Shown here piece after piece: positions 7,627 to 64,000 of a DNA stretch of 64,000 bases. The stretch is from Schmidtea nova (taxonomy: Eukaryota), in contig CM097882.1 of the NCBI GenBank assembly GCA_044892505.1, positions 157,790,001 through 157,854,000 of the forward strand, written 5' to 3'. Under the pieces are notes generated by a model. The model did not search any database, was not told the DNA's origin, and was given only the letters and a program-made list of their open reading frames with translations. The translations under genes were made by a program, and so were the position numbers. How positions within the stretch are numbered: position 1 is the first letter of the stretch; every line of letters starts with the position of its first letter.

Positions 7627-7668
7627 CAGTATTTATACTAAGTTTATGTTGTTGGCCGGCCAATCAGC
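7627..7668 (-). promoter_or_regulatory. LTR promoter (TATA plus CCAAT box), copy A
   Basis: Minus-strand GCTGATTGG followed ~20 nt later by AGTATAAATACTG; same pair at 41050-41090 and 50877-50923. Confidence 0.7.
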
Positions 7669-8127
7669 ATCGAGTATGTGTGTACTTATTGCTACTCATT
7701 TATGTTCGTCAGTCTTTCTGTGTAATTCTATTCAGTAAGTTGTTTATTTAACCATGCGTTAATTCTTTGTTATGATTTATTTTATTTTAGATGTTCGGTG
7801 ATGTCCGCCCACGTCCTGTCATATTTTCAGATTTATCTGATTTGCATGGGTGAGTTTTTATTGTTACTTTATTTTGATTTATTCTTTTGTTGTTTTCAGA
7901 TTCTGCCGCGTATAGCTGACTATTTGCTGATGGTAATTGATTTTTGTTGTTATTTTTATGTACATTTATTTCATTAAATTTTTATTACTTTTCAGGTGAC
8001 TGCTGATTTGTCTGGCCCAACATTAATATTATCTATAATATTATTATTATTTACCAAATGAATTGCGAATTTATTAAAGCTATGTAAACATAACAAAATA
8101 GAAAATAAAATTCAGATATTAAAATGT

Positions 8128-41049: not shown

Positions 41050-41090
41050 CTGATTGGTCGGTGTGCTGATCTGATCAGTATAAATACTGA
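41050..41090 (+). promoter_or_regulatory. LTR promoter, copy C
   Basis: CTGATTGG followed by TCAGTA-TAAA-TACTGA (TATA inside an inverted repeat). Confidence 0.7.
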
Positions 41091-42493
41091 ACCAGAATCT
41101 GATAATTTTAATGCATGATTTTTGTATAAGTCAGTTGAACTTAAATTTGGATCAGAAATTTCACTGAAACTATCTTGAAAGGTATGACTGATTTTATTTT
41201 TTTGGTAAATTTTGGTAGTTTATGTTATTATGATTTCTGTCAAATTGTTTCATAGTTAATAATATTTCTTGAAAATTTAAATGTTTATGATTATTTTTTA
41301 TAATATATAATTAGCTTGTGCTCCTTCCACTGTGTAATCGGTGGAAGGAGGCGACCCTAGTAGGGGTATCTAAGATGCCGCGTGGAGGGTTAGCCATCTT
41401 CGTAGTACTCGGTGCTACGAAGACGGTAGGGAATTGATGTTAAATTTTTGTTATTAATGCTGGCAACTATAGCCAGATTACTAATATTCTTACATTGTTA
41501 AATACTTCTATATAGTATGATTAGATAAATTTCATTGTTCACTACTATCAAGATTTATTCTGAACAACATAACATTTATTTGGATATTGCACATTGTGGG
41601 GTTTGCGCACGAGGATACCAAAAACTCTGTAAATATCTGATAGAGATTCCACAAATAGTTAGGATAGACGACATTCGATTCAATCTAATTGATCACGATT
41701 TTTGAGTACCTATTTTCAAGGCGCGTGTTGACGCTTATTTCCAAATTGTGATGTTAATAACAGATTAAGTATTCCAAATCGAGAGAATTAATGATGAGAC
41801 AGAAATTTCTTTTGCGGTACTATACTACATAAATAGATTGAGAATTGCAATTGACTATCATTCTAAACAATTGGGATAGATCGAGGAAACCTACATAATC
41901 CCTTACTCGTTGCGACATTGAGGGGTATCACATACATAAATCGATTACGTAAATCCAGATTTTTTATTTAAATTCAATTCTGATGGCAAGCGCGGATCTA
42001 GACGCTGTGTGGTAAATATCGTGACTGAAATAGCAAGATCAGTGTAGGTATTTGAAGCGGCCTACTCTGATGCATAGTAAATTGCTGATAGAACATTTAT
42101 TGAATTTGATCGACCACAAATATGAATGAAATTAAATGATTATCCTGATCCCTGTATATAGAGCAGAAGATCTCATTTTATAAATACAAATTATCCTAAT
42201 TGCTGTAGATAGCACAGGTATAAATAAATAAAACTAAATGAATTAAACTGATCACTGTACATAGCGACAGTGTTTAAAGAAATTTTTTATGTCTATTTTT
42301 CTTCTCTCATTTCCAACTTTCCATATAATAATTACGAGAGAATCATCATTCAAACGATGGCATAAAGTCTGTCGGGGTTATAAGATGGATTATCGAGTCA
42401 AAGTAATTCATAAAGAAATCTTAGCAACATTCATTTATCAATCATTTATTGTGAAATTTAAACAAGAAATAATAACTATTGATTTTCAGAACT

Positions 42494-43069
42494 ATGTTGT
42501 CAAATAACTCAAGCTCGCAAACTGAATTAGATAAGGCTTGGCTATTCATTCACAGCCTAGAGAAGGAAATCAATCTAACCAAAGAAAAGCTAAAAAATTC
42601 TGAAACAACAAATTCACATCTTCGCAAAAGCTGGTTTAGTCCAGAACAAATGAAAAGTCAACTTATAAAAAATCAACGCGCCCAACGAGCCGGAGAAGAG
42701 TACCGCATCGAGCTCGAAGTAACGAAAATAGAATTAAGGAAATGTCTGCGCTCGGTGACGACGTCATTCATTGACACTGAGTTGAAGAATCTAATACGGC
42801 CAGTTACTTATCAACGCTGGTCGGAAGAAAAAGCTGGATGTTCTATAGAAACTAATACCGAAGGGTTTCCGCAAATCCCTGAGGTTATAACAACAACAGC
42901 ACCGAAAATCTCATCTGCAATTGAAATTAAGAAAAACAAGAAAAACAAAATGGGCTCACGCCAAAGGAAGTGGAAAAAACAATTCGCTCAACAGAGAATC
43001 CATCACAATGATGAAATTCCAGAAATCGATCTGACGACAGATTTCATGACATGGGATGAGGATTTTTGA
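42494..43069 (+). CDS. LTR-borne ORF2 (intact)
   Basis: Acceptor GATTTTCAG ends at 42489, ATG at 42494; WFSPEQMK, LRKCLRSVT, LIRPVTYQRW, KNKMGSRQRKWKK. Confidence 0.8.
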   Translation: MLSNNSSSQTELDKAWLFIHSLEKEINLTKEKLKNSETTNSHLRKSWFSPEQMKSQLIKNQRAQRAGEEYRIELEVTKIELRKCLRSVTTSFIDTELKNLIRPVTYQRWSEEKAGCSIETNTEGFPQIPEVITTTAPKISSAIEIKKNKKNKMGSRQRKWKKQFAQQRIHHNDEIPEIDLTTDFMTWDEDF

Positions 43070-43383
43070 AATTTTTTGATTAAATTACTGAAGTTAAAGT
43101 CTTATTAGTTTGTACAAATATAGTTTTATTATTTTCTTTAATTAAATTTTTGTAAAGTAAAGTAGTTTAAAGAAAATTTATTATTAAATGTCGAACGGAA
43201 TTAATCAAGTATAATTTATGTTAGAAGGGTATTCATAAAATTTAAGAAACGATCAACATTAGGATTTAAAGTAGAATATATAATAATTATTCGAATTAAC
43301 TGTTGATATTGTAAGAAGGGGCAGGAATAATAAAATGAAAGATAATGAATTCAGATAAAGTAAAGTGAAAGTAAAGCGTAAGT

Positions 43384-43567
43384 CCTTCTATCGGCAGCGA
43401 CGAACCCGCGAACATAAATGGGGAGTAGTTCTAGAAATAGGGCTCCCCTGCCCATCATTGTTAAAACACCTTACACATTTTCAACTCGACTATCCAGGGA
43501 AATAGTCGAGGGTGCTTGTGTGTCACGTAAGCATTTTATGTTTGGTCGTGGATGGAGGCATCCCTAG
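43384..43567 (+). ncRNA. conserved pseudoknotted cis-RNA element, copy C
   Basis: CCTTCTATCGGCAG...CTGCC, GGGGAG/CTCCCC, CTCGACTAT/ATAGTCGAG hairpin with loop AGGGA complementary to downstream TCCCT. Confidence 0.7.
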
Positions 43568-43899
43568 AGCATGTTTTCTGTTTAATTTTAACCCATCCAT
43601 GACCACAACAGTATTCTAGGTTATTATATTTTGATAAATAAATTCTTAGTTTTATCCTCAAATTATTAATTTTATAATAAATTATAAACTTGGCAATCCA
43701 CTGTTATTAAAAAAAGCTAGCGGCAACTTTTCTCTAATCTTATTCAGCCTAACCTAGCCAAATCAAGCTCAAATCTACTTCTTACACTCATTTCTCATCT
43801 TATTTAAATTCGAAATCGTCATTCATCATTACTTGCTAAAGCTGGGAAATTAAAATCTTGTATAAATTTGTCTAATTCATTATCAGCGTAATTGCCTTA

Positions 43900-47902: not shown

Positions 47903-48116
47903 AGCTAAACCATTTTGTCGTAGCTCCTCAAAATATTTTTGCTTCCACAGAAGATTGACGAAAATAACTCTTTTGCCAGGTTCCATTGCCCTATTTTGAA
48001 CCTAGTTCTCTACAAAATTCATAAGTTCATCATATCTGCTGGGATTATGGGTGGGTTTTAAGTAATTCAGATAAATAGTTAATCATTAATTGAACGACTA
48101 CTGATGAGTACGTATA

Positions 48117-48296
48117 CTAGGGATTCCACGCCCATAACCATACATAACATGACTACTACACGCGTATGCCCTTGACTATTCCCTACTAGTCAAGTTGGTA
48201 CTGCATACGGTGGTGGAAAAATGATGGGCAGGTGAGCTTTGTTGCCAAAACTACTCCCCATTTATCTTCCCTCGGGTCCTTGCTGCCGATAGAAGG
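48117..48296 (-). ncRNA. conserved pseudoknotted cis-RNA element, copy D
   Basis: CGTATGC/GCATACG and CTTGACTA/TAGTCAAG stems; loop TAGGGA pairs with downstream TCCCTA. Confidence 0.7.
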
Positions 48297-48594
48297 TCTT
48301 ACGCATTTACATTCTAGGGATGTTCGCCCTACTGAATTTTGTACTACATATCCTTATGATCTATCATACGCTTTTCCCAATGACTTTCTTTAATTGATCT
48401 ACAATGTAATTAATCAGTCCCTGCGTAGAAACGGTCGGTTTGAGAAAATTTCGGGTGCGATTTTTTATTTCGATGATTTCATTGTTGTTATTTTATTTTA
48501 TTTAGTAACATCACCCGATGAGAGACAAAATTTACACAGAAAATACTTTTATTAAAATACTAAAATCAGGTTGTTATTTTACATAGATATTTTC

Positions 48595-49179
48595 CTAAGC
48601 GAATTCCAGACTGATCTCCTGAATCAACTCCGCTTCGGTTAAGGAGTTCAAGTGGTGGATTTGTTCGTCCAGGCGCTTTGCAAATTCTCGGCGACGACGA
48701 CGCTGTCGCGATCCCATTCGGTGTTTTCGAAGCTGTTGGTTTATGACCGGTGCTGACGCTATTGTTCTCGGGGGATCACTGAGAAAAATAGACAAGTCTT
48801 CCGTTGCGAGAGTGGGGGCCATGATGATTTCCTCTTCCGTCCCGCAAGCGACATCTTGGTGAGTGCATTGTATCCAGCGCTGAGCCGTGATCGGCCGGAT
48901 TAGCGCTCGTAATTCGGAGTCGATGTAACTTCTTGTTACTGCATTTAGGCAGTTTCGGAGTTCCCGCTGGACGGCATCTAGTTCCAATTTGGTTGCGGCC
49001 AGTGCTTCCTGCATCCGCTCAAGTTTTTTCGACTGGTCCTTCATTTGTTCGGGTGAGAACCACTTCGCTCTCAATTCATCATTGGCGACCGTGAGTCGCT
49101 TGATCTGTCGCTGCTGGTCCCTCAACTTCCTTTCTTGGATTTGTCCCATGATTTTCTTAGAATTTTCTGAAGTCGGCAT
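48595..49179 (-). CDS. LTR-borne ORF2 (intact, MPTSENS...)
   Basis: First ATG at 49179, 5 nt after acceptor ATATTCAG; WFSPEQMK, LRNCLNAVT, LIRPITAQRW, KHRMGSRQRRRRREF. Confidence 0.82.
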   Translation of the reverse strand: MPTSENSKKIMGQIQERKLRDQQRQIKRLTVANDELRAKWFSPEQMKDQSKKLERMQEALAATKLELDAVQRELRNCLNAVTRSYIDSELRALIRPITAQRWIQCTHQDVACGTEEEIIMAPTLATEDLSIFLSDPPRTIASAPVINQQLRKHRMGSRQRRRRREFAKRLDEQIHHLNSLTEAELIQEISLEFA

Positions 49180-49505
49180 GTTGTCTGAATATGATAACGA
49201 TAAATTCGCTGGAGGACCTATCACCAATGTTATTTTATTTAAACAACTATTTATTATTATTAAACGAGTTACATACTAATGTTTTTAATTATTGAGTTCT
49301 TTGCAAAATTATTTAACTACCTAATTATTGAAGGCTCAAAAAATTTATTGAACTAATTTGAGATTATTAAATGAAATTCCTAATGACTATAACAACTACA
49401 ATACTAAATATTAATAAATCTACATTACAACACTATTAACAAAATGAACATTTCAGATTTCTTTAAAACATTTATTTAATTTAGAACAGGTGGCCATTGA
49501 TGTAA

Positions 49506-49982
49506 CTAGTTATCTTCGGTCATTTTTCCTCGATACGAAAATATCGATCTGATTTGCAAATTTGTATGGATTCCTGTGCTATTGGACGAGGCCTGCTGAA
49601 AACGGGTTCTCTCCGCTTCTCGAAGGGGTCGTATGGCTGTATTGAACTTGAACCCCAATTCCTTGAAGGTAGAGGCTGGAATGAACCCCCAATAAATGAC
49701 ACATTTCGGGAATCCTCCCTTATCCAACATCAGAACGAACCAGGCGGCGTGCCATGATTCGAATTCCTCGTCTGGAATGATTGGCCAACTAGCGCATCCC
49801 CGGTACCATACGTGATGCCGTGGATGGTCCCATACCGTAAATGGACAGGCGATTTCGAGCTCTCGGCGCCATGCCCACATTTTTTGATGGATTTGCTGTA
49901 AAATCTCGAAAGGTGCCGGCTTTAATGGGCTAACTCGGGCTCGTTCTTGTCGTTTTTTGATAGTGTATCTATGCTTAGTCAT
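49506..49982 (-). CDS. LTR-borne ORF1 (158 aa)
   Basis: WYRGCASWP...WFVLMLDKGGFPKCVI resembles the copy A/B ORF1 core; acceptor AAATTCAG ~15 nt before ATG. Confidence 0.62.
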   Translation of the reverse strand: MTKHRYTIKKRQERARVSPLKPAPFEILQQIHQKMWAWRRELEIACPFTVWDHPRHHVWYRGCASWPIIPDEEFESWHAAWFVLMLDKGGFPKCVIYWGFIPASTFKELGFKFNTAIRPLREAERTRFQQASSNSTGIHTNLQIRSIFSYRGKMTEDN

Positions 49983-50876
49983 GATTCCAAAACGATGCTG
50001 AATTTTATAATAGTTACAATTTACATCAATAATTAATCATAGTAAATGTTATCTCTCATCGTGATACCCTTATTATTTGCCTTCCCCTTAGACCTTAGCT
50101 GAAATCAAGGAAAACTGTCGTTCGTTACGGTATGCATTACTCTCGTATCTACTTAGCTTTATCTGTTTACGATCAATATTATAGTTGAAAAATGGTGATT
50201 TGTCTGCTTGGATTTTTAAAATATTGATACCTCAACACGGAAGCTCTCTCCCGTCATGTATCCCTAGCTTATTCGAAAAACGCTCTTTTGTACCAAATGC
50301 GGTCGACAAAATTTTCTGAGGTTTATTAGACGTTTATCTAGCAACAATTCGTGCCTCCCCACGGTTAAAGAATTCTTTCATATCTTTAAGCTTTATCAAA
50401 AATTTATCGTCCCCTCCGTAGCCAAAACGATCAGAAAATAATTCCCCGGATTTGTTGGGTGTCCCATGTGCAAATCTCATCCATCACTAACAAAATTATG
50501 TTTTGTTATTTATTACTTTACCGTGTGTGGAGCCCTCGAGCACCACGCCACGGACGGACACCTTGGGAACCTAAAGCTCCCAACGGCGCAAGATTAATAT
50601 GATAGTTTAAATAGTTTAAATATAACATAAATCATGAGATAACTAATAAATTATAATATGATAATGACATACGAATACAACGATATCATAAACGTAAATA
50701 TACCAAAAATACCTCAATTGAATTCTGAAAATTTATTGATCAAAATCGGTCTAAACGGTGATCGTCGTCGGGGCAATGTGCAATCTAATGTGAATTTTTA
50801 GTTAAAGTCTAAATTTCAGTCTAACAAAGTCTACTGAAGTCTCACTCTAGTCAAAACGTCTCTTTTTATGAAAAAT

Positions 50877-50923
50877 CTGATCAGTATTTATACTGATCAG
50901 TCGTGTCTAGACCGACCAATCAG
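50877..50923 (-). promoter_or_regulatory. LTR promoter, copy D
   Basis: CTGATCAGTA-TTTA-TACTGATCAG palindrome containing TATAAATA on the minus strand, CCAATCAG box adjacent. Confidence 0.7.
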
Positions 50924-51491
50924 GTTCGGCCATTTTCAGGGTGGTTTTTAATTATTGTTCTTGATTCTAATTAATTTTTATTTTTTAGATTGTATTCTTC
51001 CTTGGAGGTCCGGGTTTCAAAAACAATTATTCAATAACAAGTACTTTTATTTTGTTTTAATTACCATTATTTGTATTTATTTTGTTTTTTAGATGTCTCC
51101 TGGGCCAGTTAATATCTCGAAATTCCTTTATTTTTATTTATAGCTTGTATTTAGTTTATCTATATTTTTACTATATTATTCCTTTCTTTTAATAAATAAA
51201 TATTCCCCTTTTTATCTTATTTTTCTCTTTTTTGTTTTAATTAATCCACTTTTATTTCACTGTTCCCTCTATTTGGCTGGCCCAACATCACTCGGGGACC
51301 CCTAAAATTGCGTCCCGCAATTAATTATACATTTACACCTATATCATCATACATAAAAATTAAGCAGATAAATGTCAATTTACATATACACAAAGAATCA
51401 CATAAGGTGATAGATTTTATACGTAAGCACAAAGTCATATTATTGTTAAATGTAAGTGGATCATACATAAAGTGAATGTAATATATCAGTT

Positions 51492-51713
51492 TTACACAAG
51501 CTCTTTGATTTCATGATTGGTATTGGATTGGATTGGGGTTCTTTCGCTGATTGTTCGTAGTTCGTAGTGGCTTTGGATTCGGTTTAGGTGTTTTCTCATT
51601 CGCTTTTGGGTTCTGCTGTCTTGTATTGTTGTTCGATTCAGGATGACTTGTTTTTGTTTTAGGATCTTCACTCGGTATGATGCTATGAGGATTGTGATCG
51701 CGATAATGGTCAC
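51492..51713 (-). CDS. possible small accessory ORF (hydrophobic N-terminus)
   Basis: Last ORF of the A-rich array; overlapping alternative frame 51511-51750; no clear acceptor. Confidence 0.35.
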   Translation of the reverse strand: MTIIAITILIASYRVKILKQKQVILNRTTIQDSRTQKRMRKHLNRIQSHYELRTISERTPIQSNTNHEIKELV

Positions 51714-51787
51714 GCTGAGTGCAAGGATTATTATAATTGCGATGATCCATTTTTCTTGATATTCTATTTCTGCTTGGGCTAAGCTTT

Positions 51788-52063
51788 TTATGGGTTCTCG
51801 ACCTTCTTTTGGGTTTTTCTGATTGTTTTCAATTTGATTCGATGTTCATATAGGACCTGTTGAAATTTTTCATCGTTTGGGTTGTCTGATGTTATCTGTT
51901 GAAGTTGGGTGATTTCTTGTGTTGCTTCGCTGATTAGTTTATCTAGTTCTTGATAGGTTTTCTCGGGTAGGGCTCGTAGCTCCTTCTCTGTGAGTTGAAG
52001 ATCTTCTCTTTGTAGGGTGATTGTTATTAGGTATATGAATATCGGTATTCCGAGCTTCTTCAT
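51788..52063 (-). CDS. small accessory ORF, hydrophobic N-terminus plus coiled coil (91 aa)
   Basis: Same codon style as neighbours, LGIPIFIYLITITL segment, tandem position in the array. Confidence 0.55.
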   Translation of the reverse strand: MKKLGIPIFIYLITITLQREDLQLTEKELRALPEKTYQELDKLISEATQEITQLQQITSDNPNDEKFQQVLYEHRIKLKTIRKTQKKVENP

Positions 52064-52145
52064 ACTGTTTTCTTTACAGATAGGTCAATACAATTTGACA
52101 CTACATTTCATACAATTATTTACAAAAATATATTTTCCGCTTTAT

Positions 52146-53207
52146 TTACACAATCGTCTCGTTTGGTTCGTAGAAACCTTCGTCCTGAGGCTCTACCTGA
52201 TTCGTGGGGAGTGGTATCCATACAACCCTGCTCCTCCACATTTCGACTTCATCTCGATACATGTGAGATATCTGGATTTCCTCGTCCAGCAAATATTCTA
52301 GGTAATTTGCTTGTTCTGTTAATGTTTCTATTTGCTTCTCTAATTCGATTACTTTTGTCTTTTGTTCGTCTTCCTTCATCATTTTTGTTACGGCTGCCGT
52401 TATACTTGCTTCTTTGGGTATTACTGATACTGTTACTCGTTTCTGTTTCAATTCTTCGTTTTCTTTCATCAAATTCGTTAAATTTTCCTCATAACTTTGT
52501 TTCTCTTCCTTTAACCTTTCTCTGGTTCTTTTTAGCTCTATTTTCTTCTGGGTAATCACTCCTTGATAACCATTTATATCTCTCTTCATCTCTTCTTCTT
52601 TCTGATTCCATATTCCGGTGAGCATAATTTTCAGTTGTTCTTGATTAGCAAGTTCTTCTCCCATTCTTTGAACTTGATAGGTTAGTCCTTTAATTTTCTT
52701 TGCTTGTTCCCGGATAAATTGCTGTCTCTTTGTATTCCATCTTTTATTCAACACTTCTTGGTGTATTTTCTGTTCTAACTCGTCTTTTAATTCGTCGATC
52801 TCTTTATATAATTTCCAGTCATCACTATAAGCTGTCCTTTCTATTATTTCTCTAGCTTTTTCGTAAGATTCTTTCGCTTCTTTCTTCCAGTATCTTGCTT
52901 GTTCTGTAATCGAATACATCTTGTGTTCAGCTTCCATCTGCTGTCTGTCTCTTTCCTCTCGTCGCTCTTTCATCATTCTCTGGTAATATTCCTTTTGTTG
53001 TTGTAGCACTTTGTATACTTCTTCTATTTTTTCTCGACTTCTTTGACTTGATCTTTCCGCTTCTTTTAATAATTCGGCTTGTCTCTCTATCTCCTCTTGT
53101 TTCCCATAATATGCATTGACCCATATTTCAATCTGTTCTCGATGATCGCTAATCGCTTCGGCTTGATGTATCGTAATTTCTTGTAAGCATACTTCGATAT
53201 TTCCCAT
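52146..53207 (-). CDS. accessory coiled-coil protein (353 aa)
   Basis: Long E/K/Q/R-rich helical ORF; T-tract acceptor TTTTTTTTTTGAAATTATAG 2 nt before ATG. Confidence 0.8.
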   Translation of the reverse strand: MGNIEVCLQEITIHQAEAISDHREQIEIWVNAYYGKQEEIERQAELLKEAERSSQRSREKIEEVYKVLQQQKEYYQRMMKERREERDRQQMEAEHKMYSITEQARYWKKEAKESYEKAREIIERTAYSDDWKLYKEIDELKDELEQKIHQEVLNKRWNTKRQQFIREQAKKIKGLTYQVQRMGEELANQEQLKIMLTGIWNQKEEEMKRDINGYQGVITQKKIELKRTRERLKEEKQSYEENLTNLMKENEELKQKRVTVSVIPKEASITAAVTKMMKEDEQKTKVIELEKQIETLTEQANYLEYLLDEEIQISHMYRDEVEMWRSRVVWIPLPTNQVEPQDEGFYEPNETIV

Positions 53208-53324
53208 TGCTATAATTTCAAAAAAAAAATTTTTTTAATCGGTTTATATATCAGTTATTTTTTGTTTATATAATAATTTTTGGGTATTTAACTGTACACA
53301 TTATTTACATGATCACTTCTCTTG

Positions 53325-54707
53325 TTACGTCAACCATCCTTTTCTATCCGCTTTCTCATTCCTTTCCATTTCTATGTATAGGGTGTCTGCATATAATCGT
53401 TCCCATAAGCTTTCTTTCGTTATAAACATCGGTTCTCCCGCTGCTAATCCACATTCTGTGGTTGGTTTCTCGCTCGTACTCGCATGTTTCTCTGTCTCAA
53501 AGAATTTTTCCACCGGTTTTGCTACACTTCTGATTCTTATAATGACTCCTACTTTCAAGGGCCATTCTACTAGGTCGTCGTATTCTCCTTTACATAGCGA
53601 GAAAAATATTGACACATGTGTTCCTCGTCCTCTTCCGTCTCCATTTGGGTATAGCTTCAATCTCATTTTAGCTCCGTTTCTCCATAAATAAAATGGTGGG
53701 CTTATTACTGCTGTTTTCGTCATATTTCTGGCCTCTGTTAATTTGTCTCTAAAATCTGTCACTTTCCACACATATGGTGCGATTGGTAACTTTTCCTCGG
53801 TATCCTGGGTGAGTTTGTTGTACTGGATTTTCATTCCTTTAGCCAGTTCTTCGATAGCTTTTATCTTTTCCTCCATCTTTTCTCGTGTTAGTTCGAATTG
53901 CTCTCTGGTTTCCAACAGTAGGTTTACCATTATCTTGTGTGACTCTATTTCTCTTTCTAATTTTTTGATTGTTTGTTCGGTTTCTTTTGTTGCTTCGTTT
54001 GTCATTTCCGCATGCTTTAGCAATGCTTCCTCCAGATGTTGTTTCATGGTTTTTTGCGTTCTTTTCTCCATACATCCCTGTTTGTTATAAGGACATTCCC
54101 TTGGTTTCTCCGTGCACACTTTCCAATGTTCTTGTAATTTTACTTCTACCGTTATCTCGCATTCGTTTGAACATATTCCTACATATTGTCTACATACTTT
54201 CTCCTCTTTTACATTCAGGTGTTCTTCTTCGATCTTTCTCCTCGTTTCTCGAGTTCCACAATATTCGCATAGACTTTCCTCTTCTTTACATTCATCTTTG
54301 TGCTGCTCTTTATTCTTTATAGTTATTTTTTGTTGGCATTTGTTACATTCAGTTCTCTTCTCTTCGCAGTTCTCCAGATGGTTCTCGAGATCGCGTATTT
54401 GTCCTTGCCATATACATGGTTGATTTATACATTCGGTTTTCGTGTTCATGATTTCTCTCTGAGTTTCTCTATCTGGTCCGGTTTCTTCGAATTTTATTTG
54501 TCCTTCTTTGCATTCTGGACATTCTGGTGGTCTTTTCATACTTAACTCGTGTATGCATTTGGTACATACTCTGCATCCGCATAGGGTTTGTCTTGGTTTC
54601 AATATTATGTTTTTACAATTTACACAAGTGAGTCTCTGACTCCATTTCCTGTTCTCGGCTCTCAAAATTTCGATTATCCGCTCTTCGGCTTTTCCTTCTG
54701 TATTCAT
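53325..54707 (-). CDS. TRAF: TRAF-family protein (RING, TRAF zinc fingers, coiled coil, MATH), intronless
   Basis: CVNC...CGCRVCTKC...CPEC RING; CxxxC/HxxxC zinc fingers; MATH motifs VWKVTDF, SPPFY, LYPNGDGRGRGTHVSIFF, EYDDLVEWP; acceptor CATTGTAG 1 nt before ATG. Confidence 0.92.
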   Translation of the reverse strand: MNTEGKAEERIIEILRAENRKWSQRLTCVNCKNIILKPRQTLCGCRVCTKCIHELSMKRPPECPECKEGQIKFEETGPDRETQREIMNTKTECINQPCIWQGQIRDLENHLENCEEKRTECNKCQQKITIKNKEQHKDECKEEESLCEYCGTRETRRKIEEEHLNVKEEKVCRQYVGICSNECEITVEVKLQEHWKVCTEKPRECPYNKQGCMEKRTQKTMKQHLEEALLKHAEMTNEATKETEQTIKKLEREIESHKIMVNLLLETREQFELTREKMEEKIKAIEELAKGMKIQYNKLTQDTEEKLPIAPYVWKVTDFRDKLTEARNMTKTAVISPPFYLWRNGAKMRLKLYPNGDGRGRGTHVSIFFSLCKGEYDDLVEWPLKVGVIIRIRSVAKPVEKFFETEKHASTSEKPTTECGLAAGEPMFITKESLWERLYADTLYIEMERNEKADRKGWLT

Positions 54708-54797
54708 TCTACAATGATATATACACTTGATTTGTTATCTATTTTTTGATTTTTCTTGTTTTTGTTTTACATATTTACAATTTTTCGCTTTATTTAT

Positions 54798-55154
54798 CTA
54801 CGGCTCGTTTGTTGAATCTGGTTCTGGGTCATTTTCTGATCTGTTTATTGCCCAATTTGTCCATCCATCCTCTGCTTCTTCTGTCTCTCCCATTGTTAAA
54901 CGGTCTATCTCTATTGCTTGTCTCTGATTTATGTCGCTCATCACTTGATTCTCTCTGGTGAGTTGCGTTATCAATCTCTGTTGCTCCTCGATTCTGTGGA
55001 GTTGTTCAAAACTATTATTATAACTTTCGGATAACAAATTCTGTTTCTCAATTAACTGATTTTGTAGTGAGTTGATTGTTCGTATTAACATGTCACACTG
55101 GGCTTTCCATCGCATAGCCATAGTAGTTTCTGCTATTTCTTCCTGTTCGTTCAT
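54798..55154 (-). CDS. small accessory coiled-coil protein (118 aa)
   Basis: Heptad-like Q/E/L pattern; acceptor TTAATGTATATAATTTAG 3 nt before ATG. Confidence 0.7.
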   Translation of the reverse strand: MNEQEEIAETTMAMRWKAQCDMLIRTINSLQNQLIEKQNLLSESYNNSFEQLHRIEEQQRLITQLTRENQVMSDINQRQAIEIDRLTMGETEEAEDGWTNWAINRSENDPEPDSTNEP

Positions 55155-55279
55155 TTTCTAAATTATATACATTAATCGTTTTCTCGATTTCTCTTTTTAT
55201 ATTTTTATAATATCGATACCCATACTATTACGGTAATGCATTGTTATTTACACTATTATTTACAGTCATATCCCGCCTC

Positions 55280-58200
55280 CTATATCACCATCACTGTCTT
55301 TCCTTCGTATCGCTCTTCATCTTCTATTTGTCTCCAAAATTCTTTACCTTTCGTCCTCCTTTGGAATTCTTTATGTACTTCTTCCGGTAATTCTATACTG
55401 TAGTTCATGATCTTTATATCTGGCCAATGTGTTATTGGTTTCTTGTTGAATACATCATATATCCATATTATTAATAATACTGTTATTACTGGAATAGTTG
55501 CTGCTAGTATTCCTAGACCAATTAGTTCTCTAACTTGTTTGTTTACGTCCATCTTCGTAATTTCACTCTGGTTAATCATTGGTCCGTATTGTCCCTTTAG
55601 TTTATTTAGTAGTTGTTCTCGTTCTTGTTGTTTTCTTTTAACTTCTTTAATTACTTCTTCCGGCGTCCATCTTGCGTAAGGGTCTATTACTACTTGTTCC
55701 GCGTCCATTTGTTTCGTTGTCTGACTTAATTCTTTAAATTCGAGTTTTCTCACTTTCCCTTTGGACGTTGAGTTTACCGGTGTGTAGTACGTTTCGCATC
55801 TTTCCTGCTGATTTCCCAGTATGTCCGTCTTTTCTATCGCACATATCTCGTATTCGCTATTGAATTTCAGATTTCTGATACTTATTTCCTCTTTTCCTTT
55901 CGCGTTTCCACAGTCTCGTGGCTGTCTTTCCCTTTGTTTCTGAACTATTACCCAACATATTTCTAACGTTTTATTGTCTATTCTCCATAGTATAAGAGTT
56001 GCTGTAGTATTCTTTTCGGTTTTTATTTGTATATCTTGGTTTTTCTGTTGTCCATTAGGTTTAAAGGTAGTGGTATACCTCGCTTTTCCTTTGTTCCGTT
56101 GTCTTCTACTTTTTCGCGTTGTCTTTCCAGCTCTTGTTCTGGTGGGTGTTTTATATAATCTGCATTCCAATTCATTTACTGTTATTTTGTCGCTTTTCCT
56201 GATCAGGCATATTTCGTACGTTTGATTGCTTTCTAATCCTTCTATCTGTATTGTGGTTGTTCCTCTGTTTGTTCGACATTGCGGCGGTGTATTCTGGTTT
56301 GTTTTCCTTTCCTGCTTCTTCCAGCATACGCCTTTGACGTCCGGTTCTATCCCGGTTAACTCTAACATTATAGTTGTTCTCCGTTTGGTGCGTTTATTTC
56401 TTCTTCCTCGTCGTATGAACTTTATTGTTTCCCCAGGTTGAAATGTTTTACAAATTGTCGTTCCTTTCTTGTGTCTTTCTTTTTCTAGTAAACATAGTTC
56501 ATACGTCCTGTCTGCTTTTACTTCTGATATTTTGGTTACTTTATTTGTTTTCCTTTTCCGACTCGTCTTTATTTCGCTTACGCCAATTTCTTCGTTGCTT
56601 CTGGCCCAACACTTTGGGTTGGTGTTTTGGGTGTCGTTCATCTCTGTTACTGCCATTGTGTCAATGTCTATCCCTTCTTCTAACCGTTTTAACATTGTTA
56701 ATATGAGTGCTAAACATAGTAATTCTGTTTGGTAGGTCACTCTTTCGGTCTCGTTTGTGGTTACTCTTGCTTCGGGCCTGTCTATGGTAATTTGTATAGT
56801 TGGCGTTGTTCGTCTGTCTATTGTCTGAGGTTTCTTGTTTTTTGTTCCTTGTGTCTCTGTTCTTCCACACTTTCCTACAACATAGTCTCCTTTGGATGAC
56901 TGCTGTATTGTTATGGTTACTTTGGGCGTTAGGTAGTTTGCACATGCTATTGTGTTGTGTGATCTTGGATTCTTTTGTTTTCTGATGGTGCATATTTTGT
57001 ACCAAGTATCTAGCTCTAAGTCATCGATCTCTATGATTCCTTGTTCATATTCTGAGATCCTGCAATCCATTGGACTATTTTGTCCCGATATTTTGTCCTT
57101 TTTTGACCAACATACTCGTTCGATTCCTTTTGCGTTTCCAATTTGTATTGTCGCTCTTTCTTCACATATCATTCCTTGAGTTGGACTAATTAAGGTCATG
57201 ATTACCGTTAGTAATAATAGTTCTGGTTTAAAGAATGGGTTTATTGTTTGTTTGTAGCCTGTTCTTTTTGCTTCGTTTTTATTTTTATAGTTGTTGTTTC
57301 TTTGTTTCCCAAATTCATTTTTCTTATCATTTTTCTCTGTGTCCCTTCCTTTCTCTTCACTGTCCTCTTCATCTGATAACTCATGATCCTCTGGATTTTC
57401 TCGAGTACTATCGTCGTCGTTTCCTGTATTGTCGCCTCCCCTTTGGTCGTTGAAAATGTCGTCCTCGACATTAATTGCTTCTATCATTTTTTCATACGTT
57501 ATGGTTGTGAGTATACTTGCTTCATATTCTTGTGTTACTGCCTGCTTAGGTATTTCCTTATCGGTTAATTTACAATCTAGAATCTCTTTCTTGGCTTTTA
57601 TCCAATTATTAAGGTACGTTTTCATTAGTTCTTTCCATTTGTCCGTACGTTCTGTTTCCTTTGGGTTGTTTGTGAATCGTAAATCTTTTCTTCTCATGAA
57701 GATATCTATTATCTTTGGCCATTTGTTTATTATTAATGCACACTTTATATACAAATTTTGGCCTTGTTCCATGCATTCGTTGATCCTGAATGCTGGTTCA
57801 TTGGTGTTTGGGTTCATCCAATTGAGTATTGCTTCAGTTAGTTCAGCGTTATGCATCATGGAATGTACGCTAGCTTTTTTAACTGTCCTTGTAAGGTATT
57901 CTATTTCCTCCTGATTTGTGATTGTTTTTATGAAATTTATCACCTCCCAATTGTGCGCTAACAACGCTACGTCTAGTATTGAGCTGTCTTTGTTAGTTCT
58001 TCCCATGAGTCCTGCACCTGCTTCGTACAGTTCCTGTAACACTCGGGTTTTTGTGTTCGCTCTTGCTGCGAATATCATGAGGGTATCTCCCTTTTTATCT
58101 TTCATGTTCATGTCACTTCCGCAATCTTGCATCAACCGTGCAATTTCGACTACCCTCCTATCTTTTCCTGCTCGTAAGGCTCTATGTATTGGCAATACTC

Positions 58201-61200
58201 CATTCTTTGTTAATAAGAAAGTCACTGGCATTTCTCTTTTTATGATCATCATATCGTTTTCATTGTAAGTTCCTTCCGCATATGCGTGTACCTTTTCCAC
58301 AATTGCTCCGAGTATCTCCAGTGTATGTTTAGAATTTTCGAATTCTGGTAATAGTTCTTTTGCTTTGTCCTGTATCGCATCTAACCTTTCTTGATATGGT
58401 ACTTCTGCGCTGAAAAGTGGTGTAAATTTCCTTTTGCTTTCTCTTTCCTTTCGACATAGGAATTGTTTGCATTTTTCGGGGTGGTTTAATATGTCTATTA
58501 GTTTGTCATACTCTTCTTCCACCGTTTTGTATTTATCTTGAAAATTGGATATATCTTTGTAAGTTATCGTCTTGGTTAGCGATTTTGCACACCATTCCCT
58601 AATTTTCCTGAATAATGCTTCTTTTTCACTTTCGAATTTACACTCCTCTTTGTTTTTGGAAATTGTAATATTTCTTCTGTCCAATAATATTAACAGTGTT
58701 TTCTGATCACAAACTAATTTTAATAGGAATTGTAATAACGCGTTTTGTCCTTTACTGTATACTTCGTTTATATTTAATACCCATGTATCATTTTCGGATC
58801 TTTTCCATTTTATTAGCTTGCGTATTGTTTTGCAGTTACCGATTTTTATTGCCTCCTTGATTATATCACCTTTGATCAGTTCGTCTATTTCCCAAGTGGC
58901 CTTCTCGATTATTCGTTTGAGCATTATCTGATTTGAGCTCCATATTGCGTGATTCAAGACTGTTTTGTTTTCTCTATCGCGCTCCGTCCAGTTGAAATCG
59001 GCATTTATCAAAAGGTCTATTATTGCCTTATCCGATTTGTAGATGGCTGCTACCATTAATGGTGTTTCTTGTTCGCTATTCCCAAAACCAAGGTGTTGGT
59101 TGGTTTCCTTTGCGATTTTTAGAAGTTCTTTTACCCTCTCTACTTCTCCCCATTTTATGGCGTTATGTAATGCTGGTTGTCCTCCTATGTCTTCTAGTGA
59201 AAGTATTTCTGGAATTTTCTCCAGTAGTTCTGAAATGACTGGTTTTGTTGGTAGTCCCCTTGCGTAATCACTAATTATAGACTGTATATCTCTTAATATA
59301 TCGTCTCTGACATGCCATTTTCCCATTATTTCTCTGGCTTTTAGTACAATTTCCTTGTTTCTTTTTCCTTGTTGATTGTTTTCTGCTTCGGTACTTTCAT
59401 TGGTTGCTCTGAGCATATTCATTCTGGCTGTCTGGGATCTAGTTATTATTCGTTCTTCTGGCGTTGTGGTTATTGTCTTTGGTACTTCTTTACATCTGCA
59501 TGTATTAACGTATATTGGTCGTATCAATGGTCGATTAACAAGTTTTACCTTCACATTGTTTTCCTTTTTGTATATGACTTCGTAAGGGCCTTTTCCTGGT
59601 CTTTGTAGTTTTTTAACGGTTCCTGGTATTATTTCTGGGGTTTCTATCATTACCCAATCTCCCGGCTTAAGATCATTTGTTTTAACATTTTTCTTTTGAT
59701 CGTGTAGGTCCTTGTAACTTTCCTGGTAAAACTTTATGTTTAGCTCTGCTGTCTTCCATATCTCTTGCATTCGTTCTTTGAATTTGGTGACGTAATCATC
59801 TTCCTCCATATATTGAGACAAAGGTGGTTGATATTCAAGATCTATTGGCATATTGCATTCCCTTCCATACATTAATTGAAACGGACTCAATTTTGTTGCT
59901 GCGTGTATCGACATTCGGTATGCCATTAGACATAGCTTTATGTACTCATCCCAATCTGTTTGGTGTTTGCTTACATAATTGGATAACATTCGAATCAATG
60001 TGCCGTTAAATCTTTCCGTTTGTCCATTGGTTTGCGGATGATATGGTGACGTTCGTAATTTGGCTATCCGGAAGTAATTTGTTACTTCATCTAATATTTC
60101 GCTCATGAAATTTGTTCCTTGATCTGTTAGTATTTGTTTCGGGGTTCCGTATCGACAACATATTTCCTCTACTAAAATTCTTGCTACCGTCTTTGCTTTT
60201 TGATCCGGCATCGCAAATGCCTCAGGGAATTTCGTCAAATAATCCGTTATTACCAATATATATTGATTCACATTTAAACTTTCTGGCAATGGTCCTATTA
60301 CATCCATCGCAATGGTAGTCATTGGTTCCGCTGGTATTGGCATGGGTTTTAAGGGATTTTTCCATTTCTTCCCACTATCCTTTCTTGTGGCACAAGTTAA
60401 ACAGTTCTTTATCCATTCCTTTACGTCCTCGTCCATTGTTGGCCAATAATATTTTTGTCTCATACGATCTAATGTTTTCTTATCGGACATGTGTCCTCCC
60501 AACTTTCCGTCGTGGTATTGAGTTATTATCTCTTTTCGTCTATTACCTGGCAGACACATTAATCGTTTTTCTCCATCCTGTATTAATAACCATCCTTTTT
60601 CTATTGTGTATCGATGTTGGTATTTCCTCATGTGTTCTTTTAACTCCGCATTGTCTTTGAATACATCCATATTCCGTGAGCTTAGGAATTCTATGATGGG
60701 TCTTAGTTCTTTATCCTCTTGCTGATCTTTCTTTAACTCGCTGAAATCCAAATCTTCTGCTATCATTATGCATATTCTTTGCACTTCTGGGTCTGTTAAT
60801 TCTGGAAACGTTAATCTTGACATGCAATCTGCGTTGGCATTCGCTTTTCCTGATTTGAATTTTATATCTGGTGAATATTCTTGTAATTGCATCGCCCATC
60901 TCATCAACCTGCTGGATGTTTCCTTATGTTGTCCTAGCCATACCAGTGGTTGATGATCCGTGGTTATGCATATAATGTGTCCCCATAATAGATATTTAAA
61001 GTGTTTTATTGCTAATATTATTGCCAATGCTTCTCTTTCCGTTACTGAATAATTCTTCTCGTGTTTCTTGAATGTTCTGCTATAATATCCGATTACCCGC
61101 TCTTTTCCCTCGTCATCATATTGTCCTAACACTGCTCCTGCTGCATATCCACTTGCGTCGGTTGCGAGTAAAAATGGCTTTTTGAAGTCCGGGTGAACCA

Positions 61201-63997
61201 ATATTGGTGCAGTTATTAGCTTATCTCTCAATGTTTCAAAGGCTGTTTGTTGTTCGCTTCCCCATATGAACGATACGTCTTTCTTTACTAGCTCCTGGAT
61301 TGGTTTTGCAATTCCTGCGTAATCCTTTATGAATTTTCTATAGTAACCGCATAATCCGAGAAATTCTTGGATCTGCGTTATCGTCTTTGGTACTGGACAT
61401 TCTTTTACTTTATCAATGTTTCTGGGATCTGGTTCCTTTCCTTTTGCGGACACAATATGTCCTAAGAATGTCACTTTCTCCTTTGCCCAATCGCATTTCG
61501 ATGGTTTGAGCTTGAGTTTCCATTGTCTCAGTCTAACAAATACATCTCTGATATCTTGGATGTGTTGTTCAAATGTGCTTGAGTAGATCAGTAGGTCATC
61601 AATGTAAACCATGCATTGTTTTATGCCGTGGGTAACGAAATTCATACATCTTTGAAATGATGCTGGCGCATTGGTTAGTCCAAATGGCATTTTCCTAAAC
61701 TGGTACAAGTCTCTTCCGATAGTGAAAGCAGTTTTCTCTTTGTCTTCCTCCTTCATTTTAATTTGCCAGTATCCGCTTTTCAAATCCAATGATGTAAAAT
61801 ATGCCGCTCCTTGTAATGTCAATAACATCTCGTTGATGTCTGGTAATGGGTATGTATCCCTTTTTGTAACTGCATTTAATCTCCGATAATCAATACAAAA
61901 TCGTTGTGTTCCGTCTTTCTTTTTCACCATTACAACTGGGAATTGCCACGGTGAGCAGCTTGGTTCAATTACTTCTGCGTCTAGCATTTTCTGTACTTCT
62001 GCTTCGGCTACTGATTTTTGCGCTTCAGCTAACTTGTATGGTCTTAACGCAATAGGCGTTTCGTCTGTTAGTGGAATCGTATGTAGTGTGACGTCGCATG
62101 TCCCTAGATCTAAATCGGATGCTGCGAATATGTCTTTATATTCTATCAGTAATTTTTCTAGCTGTTTCTTTTGATCCTCATTCAATAGTTGGCTATCAAT
62201 GTTCCAAGTGGGTTCTTCCTCTTTTACTCCTTCTTTTATTGGTATTTCGATATCTATCATTGGAGTTAGTTTACCTAATCTTTCATTTTCATAAATTATT
62301 TTATCCTCTTCATCGAAATTTACTACATTTATTGGGATTTCTCCGTTGTCATTCGCACTCACTAATCCCCTTGCCATTGGCAACGACTTTCTCTTTTCAA
62401 ATCTTTTACTGGGTTCAAAGATCATGTCACCTTCTATTGTAGGATCTATTTTTACGAAACATATTTTCTCTCTCCGTGCTGGTACGATTATTTGTTTCGA
62501 ACTTGTTACTTTTGCTTCTATTGCGCATATCTGTCCTGTCCTATCCTTTAATCTCATTGTTCCGAGGTCAATAACTATTTCTTTAAATAATGCTGGCATC
62601 AGATCCGTGCCTATAATGCATGGTACGCTTAGTGCTGGTATTACTGCTACGTACGTTTCGATTTCCGTGTTTTGATGTTTTATCTTTACCCACCATCTTC
62701 CGGCAACTTCTACTACTTCTTTACTGCATGCTATTACGTGAACGTTGGTTCTCTCAATATCCCGTCTTTGTTCTTGTGGTATCCATTTTATATCTATTGC
62801 TGAGATATTTGCTCCTGTATCAATCATCGCTTCAATTTCCCTTCCGTTAATTTCGATTGTTGTAGTTAATACTGGACCGGTGTTTGATGACATTACTGCA
62901 ATTGTATGTGAGTCTCCTTGCGGATCTACGCTTCTGCACCGTCTCGTTCTATAGTCTTCTGGTATCATAGGATATATGTTTGTCATCGGCATCATTTGCA
63001 TTGTATTTTGTCTCATCCCTGGTGTTGGTTCTTGGTACATGGTTGGTGGGGGTGCGTAACACTTCCACATTTCCGCTGGATTCTTTTCGACATACTGTGG
63101 TACTTGATTTTTAAATACTTGACCTCCTTCGTTATCATCATCATCGTCGTCACTGGAATCGTCTTGGGTTCTGTACCCTTTCATTCTTTCCCATAGTCCT
63201 TTTCTCTCTTTCTTTAGTTGTTGTCTTGCTTGTTCGTTATTCATTATCTTTTTAAATTTTCGTCCCACCTCTTCATCGGTTCCTTTCATTTTTGCCAGTA
63301 TTTTTAGGAGTCTCTTTATTCGGTGAATATCTTTTGAATGACCGTGTAATACCATTGTTTTAGCCAAAAATGGTAAGAATCCTACCACCAATTTCCAATT
63401 TACTTTCTTTTCTCTTTTATAGATGTCAAAACAGGCTAACATTTGCGTTATTATTACCCGTATTATTTGTATAATTAGTATAACACCAAGTATTCCTGCC
63501 ATCATTTGTCCAAATATTAAAAATCTTCCCCACATCGCTTTCATCATGTTTTCCGTTGCCTTCTTAAAGTGGGCTGGTGACAATAATAATTCATAATTTG
63601 GTCCACCTTGGTAATTTGTTCCTCCTGTTATTGTTACAATGCTGGATAACACCGCTTCCCTTCTTGCTGGAAATAGTATGTTTTGTCTCGCTGCCTCTAA
63701 GTCTTTTGCGCTATAGAATCCCATATTGCTTACATCTACGTCTTTAAATTTTCGTCCTTTTGATAGTTGCATCAATTCAAATTCCCTTGGTGCTGGTACC
63801 TCTGTTCTTGACGGAAACATAACCCAATTCCCGTCTGGTTTTTGGTATAATGGTCCATATGCGTTGCTGCAATTGAAAGGGTTTGGTTCGAAGCTTACTG
63901 GATTTATGATTCTTGTCACTGGTTGCACATATCTTACTTTCCCTTTGTATTCGATTTCTAGTTCGTTAGTACACTGACCTGGTTGTAATTTGGTCAT
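55280..63997 (-). CDS. pol: giant polyprotein (>2905 aa, 5'-truncated by window): glycoprotein-TM, protease, RT, RNase H, integrase, ankyrin repeats, signal peptide, 4 FN3-like repeats, TM
   Basis: DTG 62813-62821; YIDD 61595-61606; DAS 61151-61159; HHCC ~60390-60514; DVIGP/TDQG/GQTERFN core; GPY ~59585; ankyrin LH/PL motifs 57930-59190; no stops; frame open to the window edge. Confidence 0.95.
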   Translation of the reverse strand: MTKLQPGQCTNELEIEYKGKVRYVQPVTRIINPVSFEPNPFNCSNAYGPLYQKPDGNWVMFPSRTEVPAPREFELMQLSKGRKFKDVDVSNMGFYSAKDLEAARQNILFPARREAVLSSIVTITGGTNYQGGPNYELLLSPAHFKKATENMMKAMWGRFLIFGQMMAGILGVILIIQIIRVIITQMLACFDIYKREKKVNWKLVVGFLPFLAKTMVLHGHSKDIHRIKRLLKILAKMKGTDEEVGRKFKKIMNNEQARQQLKKERKGLWERMKGYRTQDDSSDDDDDDNEGGQVFKNQVPQYVEKNPAEMWKCYAPPPTMYQEPTPGMRQNTMQMMPMTNIYPMIPEDYRTRRCRSVDPQGDSHTIAVMSSNTGPVLTTTIEINGREIEAMIDTGANISAIDIKWIPQEQRRDIERTNVHVIACSKEVVEVAGRWWVKIKHQNTEIETYVAVIPALSVPCIIGTDLMPALFKEIVIDLGTMRLKDRTGQICAIEAKVTSSKQIIVPARREKICFVKIDPTIEGDMIFEPSKRFEKRKSLPMARGLVSANDNGEIPINVVNFDEEDKIIYENERLGKLTPMIDIEIPIKEGVKEEEPTWNIDSQLLNEDQKKQLEKLLIEYKDIFAASDLDLGTCDVTLHTIPLTDETPIALRPYKLAEAQKSVAEAEVQKMLDAEVIEPSCSPWQFPVVMVKKKDGTQRFCIDYRRLNAVTKRDTYPLPDINEMLLTLQGAAYFTSLDLKSGYWQIKMKEEDKEKTAFTIGRDLYQFRKMPFGLTNAPASFQRCMNFVTHGIKQCMVYIDDLLIYSSTFEQHIQDIRDVFVRLRQWKLKLKPSKCDWAKEKVTFLGHIVSAKGKEPDPRNIDKVKECPVPKTITQIQEFLGLCGYYRKFIKDYAGIAKPIQELVKKDVSFIWGSEQQTAFETLRDKLITAPILVHPDFKKPFLLATDASGYAAGAVLGQYDDEGKERVIGYYSRTFKKHEKNYSVTEREALAIILAIKHFKYLLWGHIICITTDHQPLVWLGQHKETSSRLMRWAMQLQEYSPDIKFKSGKANANADCMSRLTFPELTDPEVQRICIMIAEDLDFSELKKDQQEDKELRPIIEFLSSRNMDVFKDNAELKEHMRKYQHRYTIEKGWLLIQDGEKRLMCLPGNRRKEIITQYHDGKLGGHMSDKKTLDRMRQKYYWPTMDEDVKEWIKNCLTCATRKDSGKKWKNPLKPMPIPAEPMTTIAMDVIGPLPESLNVNQYILVITDYLTKFPEAFAMPDQKAKTVARILVEEICCRYGTPKQILTDQGTNFMSEILDEVTNYFRIAKLRTSPYHPQTNGQTERFNGTLIRMLSNYVSKHQTDWDEYIKLCLMAYRMSIHAATKLSPFQLMYGRECNMPIDLEYQPPLSQYMEEDDYVTKFKERMQEIWKTAELNIKFYQESYKDLHDQKKNVKTNDLKPGDWVMIETPEIIPGTVKKLQRPGKGPYEVIYKKENNVKVKLVNRPLIRPIYVNTCRCKEVPKTITTTPEERIITRSQTARMNMLRATNESTEAENNQQGKRNKEIVLKAREIMGKWHVRDDILRDIQSIISDYARGLPTKPVISELLEKIPEILSLEDIGGQPALHNAIKWGEVERVKELLKIAKETNQHLGFGNSEQETPLMVAAIYKSDKAIIDLLINADFNWTERDRENKTVLNHAIWSSNQIMLKRIIEKATWEIDELIKGDIIKEAIKIGNCKTIRKLIKWKRSENDTWVLNINEVYSKGQNALLQFLLKLVCDQKTLLILLDRRNITISKNKEECKFESEKEALFRKIREWCAKSLTKTITYKDISNFQDKYKTVEEEYDKLIDILNHPEKCKQFLCRKERESKRKFTPLFSAEVPYQERLDAIQDKAKELLPEFENSKHTLEILGAIVEKVHAYAEGTYNENDMMIIKREMPVTFLLTKNGVLPIHRALRAGKDRRVVEIARLMQDCGSDMNMKDKKGDTLMIFAARANTKTRVLQELYEAGAGLMGRTNKDSSILDVALLAHNWEVINFIKTITNQEEIEYLTRTVKKASVHSMMHNAELTEAILNWMNPNTNEPAFRINECMEQGQNLYIKCALIINKWPKIIDIFMRRKDLRFTNNPKETERTDKWKELMKTYLNNWIKAKKEILDCKLTDKEIPKQAVTQEYEASILTTITYEKMIEAINVEDDIFNDQRGGDNTGNDDDSTRENPEDHELSDEEDSEEKGRDTEKNDKKNEFGKQRNNNYKNKNEAKRTGYKQTINPFFKPELLLLTVIMTLISPTQGMICEERATIQIGNAKGIERVCWSKKDKISGQNSPMDCRISEYEQGIIEIDDLELDTWYKICTIRKQKNPRSHNTIACANYLTPKVTITIQQSSKGDYVVGKCGRTETQGTKNKKPQTIDRRTTPTIQITIDRPEARVTTNETERVTYQTELLCLALILTMLKRLEEGIDIDTMAVTEMNDTQNTNPKCWARSNEEIGVSEIKTSRKRKTNKVTKISEVKADRTYELCLLEKERHKKGTTICKTFQPGETIKFIRRGRRNKRTKRRTTIMLELTGIEPDVKGVCWKKQERKTNQNTPPQCRTNRGTTTIQIEGLESNQTYEICLIRKSDKITVNELECRLYKTPTRTRAGKTTRKSRRQRNKGKARYTTTFKPNGQQKNQDIQIKTEKNTTATLILWRIDNKTLEICWVIVQKQRERQPRDCGNAKGKEEISIRNLKFNSEYEICAIEKTDILGNQQERCETYYTPVNSTSKGKVRKLEFKELSQTTKQMDAEQVVIDPYARWTPEEVIKEVKRKQQEREQLLNKLKGQYGPMINQSEITKMDVNKQVRELIGLGILAATIPVITVLLIIWIYDVFNKKPITHWPDIKIMNYSIELPEEVHKEFQRRTKGKEFWRQIEDEERYEGKTVMVI

Positions 63998-64000
63998 TGT

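Follow-up and report, generated by a model that had tools for sequence, protein, structure and literature searches.

Complex retroviruses and the adenovirus major late unit express many genes by splicing a single 5' leader donor to many acceptors, each just before an open reading frame (ORF), with possible alternative 3' ends. Here we describe a giant long terminal repeat (LTR) retrotransposon of Schmidtea nova whose 3' end, an array of four accessory ORFs, lies in a 64,000-nucleotide stretch of DNA (GenBank assembly GCA_044892505.1, contig CM097882.1, positions 157,790,001 to 157,854,000 of the forward strand; "the window", whose numbering we use). In our preferred reading, to which we assign a probability of roughly 55%, a 150-nt ATG-free leader from the 5' LTR is spliced in cis to an acceptor ahead of each 3' ORF, giving one mRNA per gene. 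The scheme would share the single leader donor, the ORF-adjacent acceptors and the possible alternative 3' ends of the viral systems. It differs from them in that the donor lies within the LTR, upstream of the primer-binding site (PBS), that two ORFs and their acceptors sit inside the LTR, and that env, instead of being a spliced gene, forms part of the polyprotein.

The closest described relatives are the Burro/GYPSM1 giant gypsy elements of dugesiid planarians (PMC6431247). These share with our element a length of ~28 kb, tandem repeats, and a single ORF of ~5000 aa that encodes gag, ankyrin repeats and, in frame between gag and pol, a fusion glycoprotein; both also have a RING domain and a separate TRAF/MATH accessory ORF. 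The TRAF ORF lies downstream of the polyprotein here but upstream in the D. tigrina Burro element, and the BIR or BCL2-like domain of some Burro members had no Pfam match at E<=0.05 in our element. Burro-like elements hold many accessory ORFs, and one member is reported, second-hand, to support regeneration (PMC13465017). How ORFs 20 kb and hundreds of ATGs past the promoter are expressed is unaddressed in the Burro literature searched: the three mentions of splicing in the Burro review (PMC6431247) do not concern Burro, and splicing of Burro accessory ORFs is undescribed in the literature searched, which excluded the primary Burro papers that may cover transcripts.

Spliced accessory or env mRNAs are already known from LTR elements, and the feature described here, itself real, would be a variant of that kind. 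C. elegans Cer1, also of the Ty3/gypsy type, produces its accessory CERV mRNA by splicing at an acceptor that lies before the initiator ATG, but this is one five-exon mRNA overlapping the polyprotein, whereas our element has at least six separate ORFs with their own acceptors (PMC10309623). Oikopleura Tor3a likewise expresses a 3' gene by splicing from the 5' LTR transcript; there, unlike here, the only such gene is env, the donor lies near gag, and Tor3b/4b use an internal promoter (PMC4402516). Flatworm operons resolved by spliced-leader (SL) trans-splicing likewise consist of head-to-tail genes spaced by ~100 nt, each downstream gene having an acceptor ahead of it (PMC12582326, PMC8629364), but these are host genes, whereas the present array sits in a retroelement with a cis donor joined to two acceptors. 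The literature searched contained no precedent for a set of at least six ORFs that each have an acceptor, a donor that precedes the PBS and two spliced genes within the LTR. The locus contributes DNA-level evidence for leader splicing and exact predicted junctions.

A Burro-like element and its 3' accessory array

With neighbouring DNA added to the window, a minus-strand LTR element of 28,441 bp emerged, of which the array ORFs are the 3' end. The paired 3.25-kb LTRs have TG...CA ends, are 99.8% identical to each other and are flanked by a 4-bp target-site duplication (TSD); the 3' LTR spans 48037..51288 (minus strand), and its 5' partner lies 9-12 kb past the window end. From 5' to 3', the element comprises the 5' LTR (TATA, leader, donor, ORF1 and ORF2), the PBS, a RING ORF (153 aa), tandem repeats, a 4987-aa polyprotein, ORF118, TRAF, ORF353, a 190-aa ORF that is frameshifted in this copy, and the 3' LTR. 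The polyprotein, whose 3' part occupies 55280..64000 (minus strand) and whose start lies 6.2 kb beyond the window, has the domain order gag, env (fusion glycoprotein), protease, reverse transcriptase, RNase H, integrase and ankyrin repeats, which is the order of Ty3/gypsy (Metaviridae) elements. Pfam placed PF24664 (fusion glycoprotein) ahead of the protease, and identified PF22486 (MATH/TRAF; E=1e-21) and PF13920 (RING; E=9e-12). The family is young and numerous, with 97-100% identity in 38 of 38 scored DNA matches and 92 TRAF matches. In size and domains the element fits the published description of Burro, as a young Burro-like gypsy retrotransposon.

The array, all on the minus strand, begins with ORF118 (54798..55154; acceptor AG 55159-55158), followed by the 460-aa TRAF-like ORF with zf-TRAF and MATH domains (53325..54707; AG 54710-54709) and by ORF353 (52146..53207; AG 53211-53210), which has no family match and for which a homolog search gave no match within 194-618 aa. 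The fourth ORF (51492..52063; weak AG 52066-52065) is frameshifted here to 91 aa, compared with 190 aa elsewhere, and by eye has a hydrophobic N-terminus and a transmembrane-like stretch. A sequence-only reading of this DNA had proposed that the ORFs carry their own splice acceptors and are separated by AT-rich spacers. We confirmed the motifs ATTTAG|aaaATG, TTGTAG|aATG and TTATAG|caATG ahead of the first three ORFs, and measured AT-rich spacers of 125, 90, 117 and 82 nt in the window copy (72-126 nt across families).

Compared with a family at 79% identity (the 79% family), dN/dS values for the four array ORFs are 0.11, 0.14, 0.10 and 0.23, which shows that their proteins are under purifying selection. 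On unspliced RNA these ORFs are preceded by 452-539 ATGs. Taken together with selection, this means that each needs its own route to the ribosome.

The plan of the spacers is kept in diverged families: a stop codon, a TGTAAATA-like motif, an A-rich linker, an AT-rich YAG, and an ATG 1-7 nt further on. The YAG is kept in 6/6 family representatives for ORF118, in 5/5 for TRAF (and in a sixth by motif) and in 6/6 for ORF353, and this conservation reaches down to 49-54% aa identity and includes a TAG-to-CAG change and AG-ATG distances of 1-7 nt. Spacer 1 (55155..55279, minus strand) contains two TGTAAATA motifs, a conserved stretch with hairpin potential, the A-rich linker and the acceptor; TGTAAA(A/T)A occurs further at 54779, 53309, 52150 and 52124. 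In four families, the conserved stretch (window 55205-55240) could fold into a short hairpin whose loop varies, with weak predicted energies (-4.4 to -4.8 kcal/mol) and differing predicted folds.

A probable DNA record of leader splicing in the LTR

In the 3' LTR, a TATA box (50885..50892, minus strand) with a CCAAT-type box upstream is kept in all LTR families seen. It precedes an ATG-free leader exon of ~150 nt (50713..50862, minus strand), whose start we place at TATA+30 and whose end is set by a provirus junction, and a splice donor (GAG|GTATTT; GT at 50711..50712, minus strand). The sequence-only reading had listed donors at 7506, 41182 and 50712. All three positions hold, but the copy at 50712 belongs to the 3' LTR, downstream of the array; the copy that could serve the array lies in the 5' LTR, outside the window, at G000:C1:157865902. 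We fetched 40 LTRs of families A and B, picked mostly for unusual open-frame length, of which six could not be judged. A donor fitting the rule lay 69-145 nt past the TATA in 15 of the 18 family-A and 14 of the 16 family-B LTRs with a TATA. Leader sequence varies widely among subfamilies, yet the leader terminates at AG|GT. Across 51 distinct leaders we counted 29 ATGs where 104 were expected, and equally long segments immediately beyond the donor contained 135; 26 of the leaders are ATG-free. The leader exon is also the most variable region of copies that are otherwise 97-98% identical, with shuffled short AGACT-like units and several subfamily versions.

Two ORFs follow the donor within the LTR. 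LTR-ORF1 (49506..49982, minus strand; 158 aa) has no Pfam or atlas match and has a candidate acceptor, TTCAG, 15 nt upstream of its ATG (49998..49999, minus strand); a second site, 4 nt ahead of the ATG, is AG in 17 other LTRs and GG in the window copy. LTR-ORF2 (48595..49179, minus strand; 194 aa) has an acceptor AG at 49185..49186 (minus strand), and atlas searches with both LTR ORFs returned nothing usable. Scored with a host-trained matrix (see below), the acceptors of LTR-ORF2, LTR-ORF1 and the RING ORF rank 1, 7 and 12 among 2144 AGs in the element. As the sequence-only reading had noted, the LTR-ORF2 acceptor is present in all four LTR copies (YAG 0, 1, 4 and 5 nt ahead of the ATG), and a diverged copy, copy A, has ACAG|ATG at ORF1.

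If the donor works and the spliced RNA retains the PBS, proviruses that have lost the intron from both LTRs should occasionally be found. A search for one leader end (type 1) without GT after it returned three matches, namely the two LTRs of one provirus and one unrelated sequence. In this provirus (C1:499.30-499.32 Mb), both LTRs lack exactly the equivalent of window 50712-49185 (1528 nt, GT...AG), which joins the leader end to the LTR-ORF2 acceptor; an acceptor-side search returned the same two matches. Its LTRs are identical at 1743/1746 positions and it has a 4-bp TSD. We selected a second provirus, at C2:349.65 Mb, solely because its LTRs lie close together. In both of them a different variant of the leader is joined to LTR-ORF1, with ~800 nt lost and the 5' breakpoint exactly at the donor; this provirus has a TSD, and its LTRs show one difference in 2438 nt. 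Its leader end has 88 matches in total, of which two come from this provirus and the other 86 run on into GT. Eight near-identical LTRs hold the GT...TTTTAG that bounds the 798-801-nt segment lost here, and the 3' breakpoint is AG in 17 LTRs, including those eight. None of six other large deletions examined is GT-AG, and several have short repeats at the joint.

We infer that the two intron-less proviruses arose by reverse transcription of spliced RNA. Since two proviruses use two acceptors, one donor is joined in cis to both, and for the LTR ORFs alone DNA evidence supports a leader shared by several acceptors. Because two copies lack exactly the stretch from the donor to an LTR acceptor, the leader is likely spliced onto the array genes too.

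No junction to a 3' array acceptor was found in the DNA searched: an acceptor-side search for ORF353 returned none, and 19 further TRAF copies have normal upstream sequence. These searches used exact-match patterns, so variant copies would be missed, and on the acceptor side they omitted TRAF, ORF118, RING, gag and ORF1. Because RNA spliced to the array loses the PBS, a DNA junction there is not expected, and its absence is neutral for the preferred reading. Contigs of four sequencing runs of unknown kind, two of which have ends that we take to be tagmentation-adapter-like, carry no weight either way: 15 of the 18 joints shown included no GT-AG joint, and among the contigs listed none spans the C1:499.30 Mb junction.

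Proposed reach of the leader to the array acceptors

In the scheme that we prefer, the same donor would reach the RING ORF and probably the gag region, as well as ORF118, TRAF and ORF353 across introns of 20.7, 21.2 and 22.7 kb. RNA spliced beyond the PBS would be translated and not copied, while unspliced RNA would serve as the genome, and the TGTAAATA/AATAAA-like motifs after each stop may act as alternative 3'-end signals. Splicing past the PBS to give uncopyable RNA suggests a way to part mRNAs from genome RNA.

We scored acceptors and donors with matrices built from 49 host introns at 10 host dynein loci, recovered by paralog alignment. The ORF118, TRAF and ORF353 acceptors score 4.7, 4.4 and 3.5 bits, ranking 40, 48 and 96 of 2144 AGs (top 1.9-4.5%), and their counterparts in family A rank 54, 58 and 76 of 2484 AGs. 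All three lie inside the score range of the 49 host acceptors, and background ATGs with an equal or better site number only 2, 3 and 5 of 548, respectively. The fourth ORF's acceptor is weak, equalled by 73 of the 548 background ATGs. We relied on the host-trained matrix because a "YAG plus T-rich" rule (1.5% of background) had been defined after the sites were known, and we dropped that rule as a test.

These scores bear on whether the AGs are incidental, with each ORF expressed from a small internal promoter, by reinitiation or by internal ribosome entry. A bare AG lies 0-5 nt ahead of 42% of 549 other ATGs in the element, so that three of three carries p=0.07, and the spacers of ORF118 and ORF353 contain TATA-like runs; in Oikopleura Tor3b/4b, env is expressed from internal promoters (PMC4402516). 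Restricted to YAG, however, the background falls to 16% of 549 ATGs (three of three, p=0.004), fewer than 1% of background ATGs reach the matrix scores, and the same geometry is used for splicing in the LTR. Moreover, the TATA-like run of the ORF353 spacer is lost in the 79% family while the YAG is kept everywhere. We therefore consider expression by these routes improbable, and that the array AGs serve as acceptors of some kind very probable.

What is joined to them is less certain. The spacers match flatworm operon spacing, which makes a real rival of a model in which each ORF of the long RNA is followed by a site of cleavage and polyadenylation and, ~100 nt on, by trans-splicing of a host SL to the acceptor, with cis-splicing confined to the LTR or both processes sharing sites. 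In S. mansoni, intercistronic distances have a median of 99 bp (PMC12582326) and in M. lignano they peak near 100 bp (PMC8629364); the spacers here measure 72-126 nt, and the 3'-end-like TGTAAATA motif lies 60-110 nt ahead of the acceptors. The array genes lie on one strand no more than 300 nt apart, with an acceptor before each downstream gene, as the operon threshold of PMC12582326 specifies. SL trans-splicing is reported in Schmidtea (PMC10899757), flatworm cis- and trans-splicing often use the same acceptors (PMC12582326), and the donor seen in the provirus junctions is more than 20 kb distant. On the other hand, LTR acceptors of the same ATG-adjacent geometry, which the array sites share with LTR-ORF2, were joined in cis to the element's own donor. 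Every ORF also keeps its own ATG, with an AG-ATG offset that shifts frame freely among families, but we judged this reading-frame argument too weak, since in S. mansoni no more than 28% of cases have the SL AUG in frame (PMC9851317). We regard resolution by SL trans-splicing as unlikely, if clearly more credible than internal promoters.

The two processes could also be combined: a cis-spliced LTR leader would serve the LTR genes and gag-pol, host SL operon machinery would serve the four 3' genes, and LTR-ORF2 would act as a Rev-like switch. Such a dual system is, in our estimate, about as doubtful as the SL operon; if true, it would be a retroelement with a built-in eukaryotic operon.

The array acceptors might instead be used in cis from donors other than that of the LTR leader alone, such as GT sites past the PBS or donors internal to the polyprotein. 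The major donors of retroviruses lie past the PBS. In our element 80 GT sites outscore the LTR donor, the best of them (9.8 bits) 126 nt past the PBS, and Tor3a has a donor near the gag start (PMC4402516). By eye, however, two other families do not evidently retain the post-PBS donor, and RNAs made from it would retain the PBS and be copyable, while none of the eight deletions examined begins there. This alternative thus seems to us a long shot.

Several observations count against leader splicing to the array. Its support is entirely at the DNA level, and the spacer lengths are equally compatible with flatworm operons. The donor is of middling strength: at 5.8 bits it ranks 81 among the element's 915 GT sites, and GT sites shortly after the PBS outscore it. 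Over 20.7-22.7 kb it would need to skip stronger acceptors, among them those of the LTR (8.7 and 6.7 bits), and the array acceptors score below the host median of 6.5 (quartiles 3.6-7.7). Families A and B yielded no intron-less LTR (0 of the 34 of 40 with a located TATA), and a family-A search on the ORF2 side returned none. The LTR-ORF1 event is the less clean of the two because its 3' breakpoint is GG, not AG, in the closest single relative and in most family members; the AG allele there gives a 4-nt repeat that could have guided a template switch.

The sequence-only reading had predicted one donor and a common leader with multiple acceptors. The conserved position of the donor stands, but its exclusive use is unproven because it ranks only 81st. 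The common leader is supported for the LTR ORFs by the two intron-less proviruses, and the array acceptors by conservation and the host matrix, while the joining of the leader exon to the array is a prediction.

Gag-pol, LTR signals and neighbouring copies

On unspliced RNA, gag is preceded by 95 ATGs. In three other copies the longest run free of ATGs (656, 593 and 640 nt) extends up to the gag ATG; in the window copy it measures 423 nt, and one ATG interrupts it. An acceptor-like site at the 5' edge of this run ranks 4 of 2484 in family A; here, 516 nt upstream, it scores only 2.5 bits and comes 156th among 2144, so it is no more than a candidate for the gag acceptor. Plausibly, gag-pol is also expressed from spliced RNA. 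Beyond the window (L011:6243-6702), the polyprotein frame has no stop in the 153 codons that precede its first ATG, the gag start; a stretch conserved in three families, DSGI(E/G)M, closes this segment. Translation might begin there at a non-AUG codon and yield Gag with an N-terminal extension.

Past the LTR-ORF2 stop (window 48530-48600) lie TGTAAAATA, AATAAA and a GT-rich run, in an arrangement similar to that of family A; a poly(A) site there would make R ~2.3 kb long. The LTR-ORF2 C-terminus (window 48595-48760) has, in eight aligned copies, a conserved Lys/Arg-rich motif followed by a spaced hydrophobic stretch. By resemblance, a Rev/CERV-like role in RNA export is a lead only.

Three further LTR copies, with approximate ends, lie in the window. 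Diverged copy A (4935..8022, minus strand) has a donor at 7506 and acceptors directly at the ORF1 (6765) and ORF2 (5888) ATGs; a truncated diverged copy (11700..13600, minus strand) has YAG at both ORF starts; and diverged copy B (40800..43600, plus strand) has a donor at 41182 and an acceptor 4 nt ahead of ORF2 (42494).

Past the integrase (window 55280-57300), ankyrin repeats are followed by Cys-containing repeats and by a signal-like and a transmembrane-like stretch for which Pfam gave no match; the 79% family has ~1.5 kb more in this part, and deletions have shortened it in two copies. In a copy at G000:C1:148.02-148.06 Mb, the ORF118 and TRAF homologs form one 476-aa frame across the spacer, echoing the interchange of separate ORFs and fused domains reported in Burro elements. 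At G000:C1:325.82 Mb, another copy is tandemly arranged: its 3' region is duplicated and it includes part of a third LTR. Window 14812-15914, 46528-47628 and 22805-25100 contain sequences without relation to the element, namely other dispersed repeats and AT-rich arrays of low complexity.

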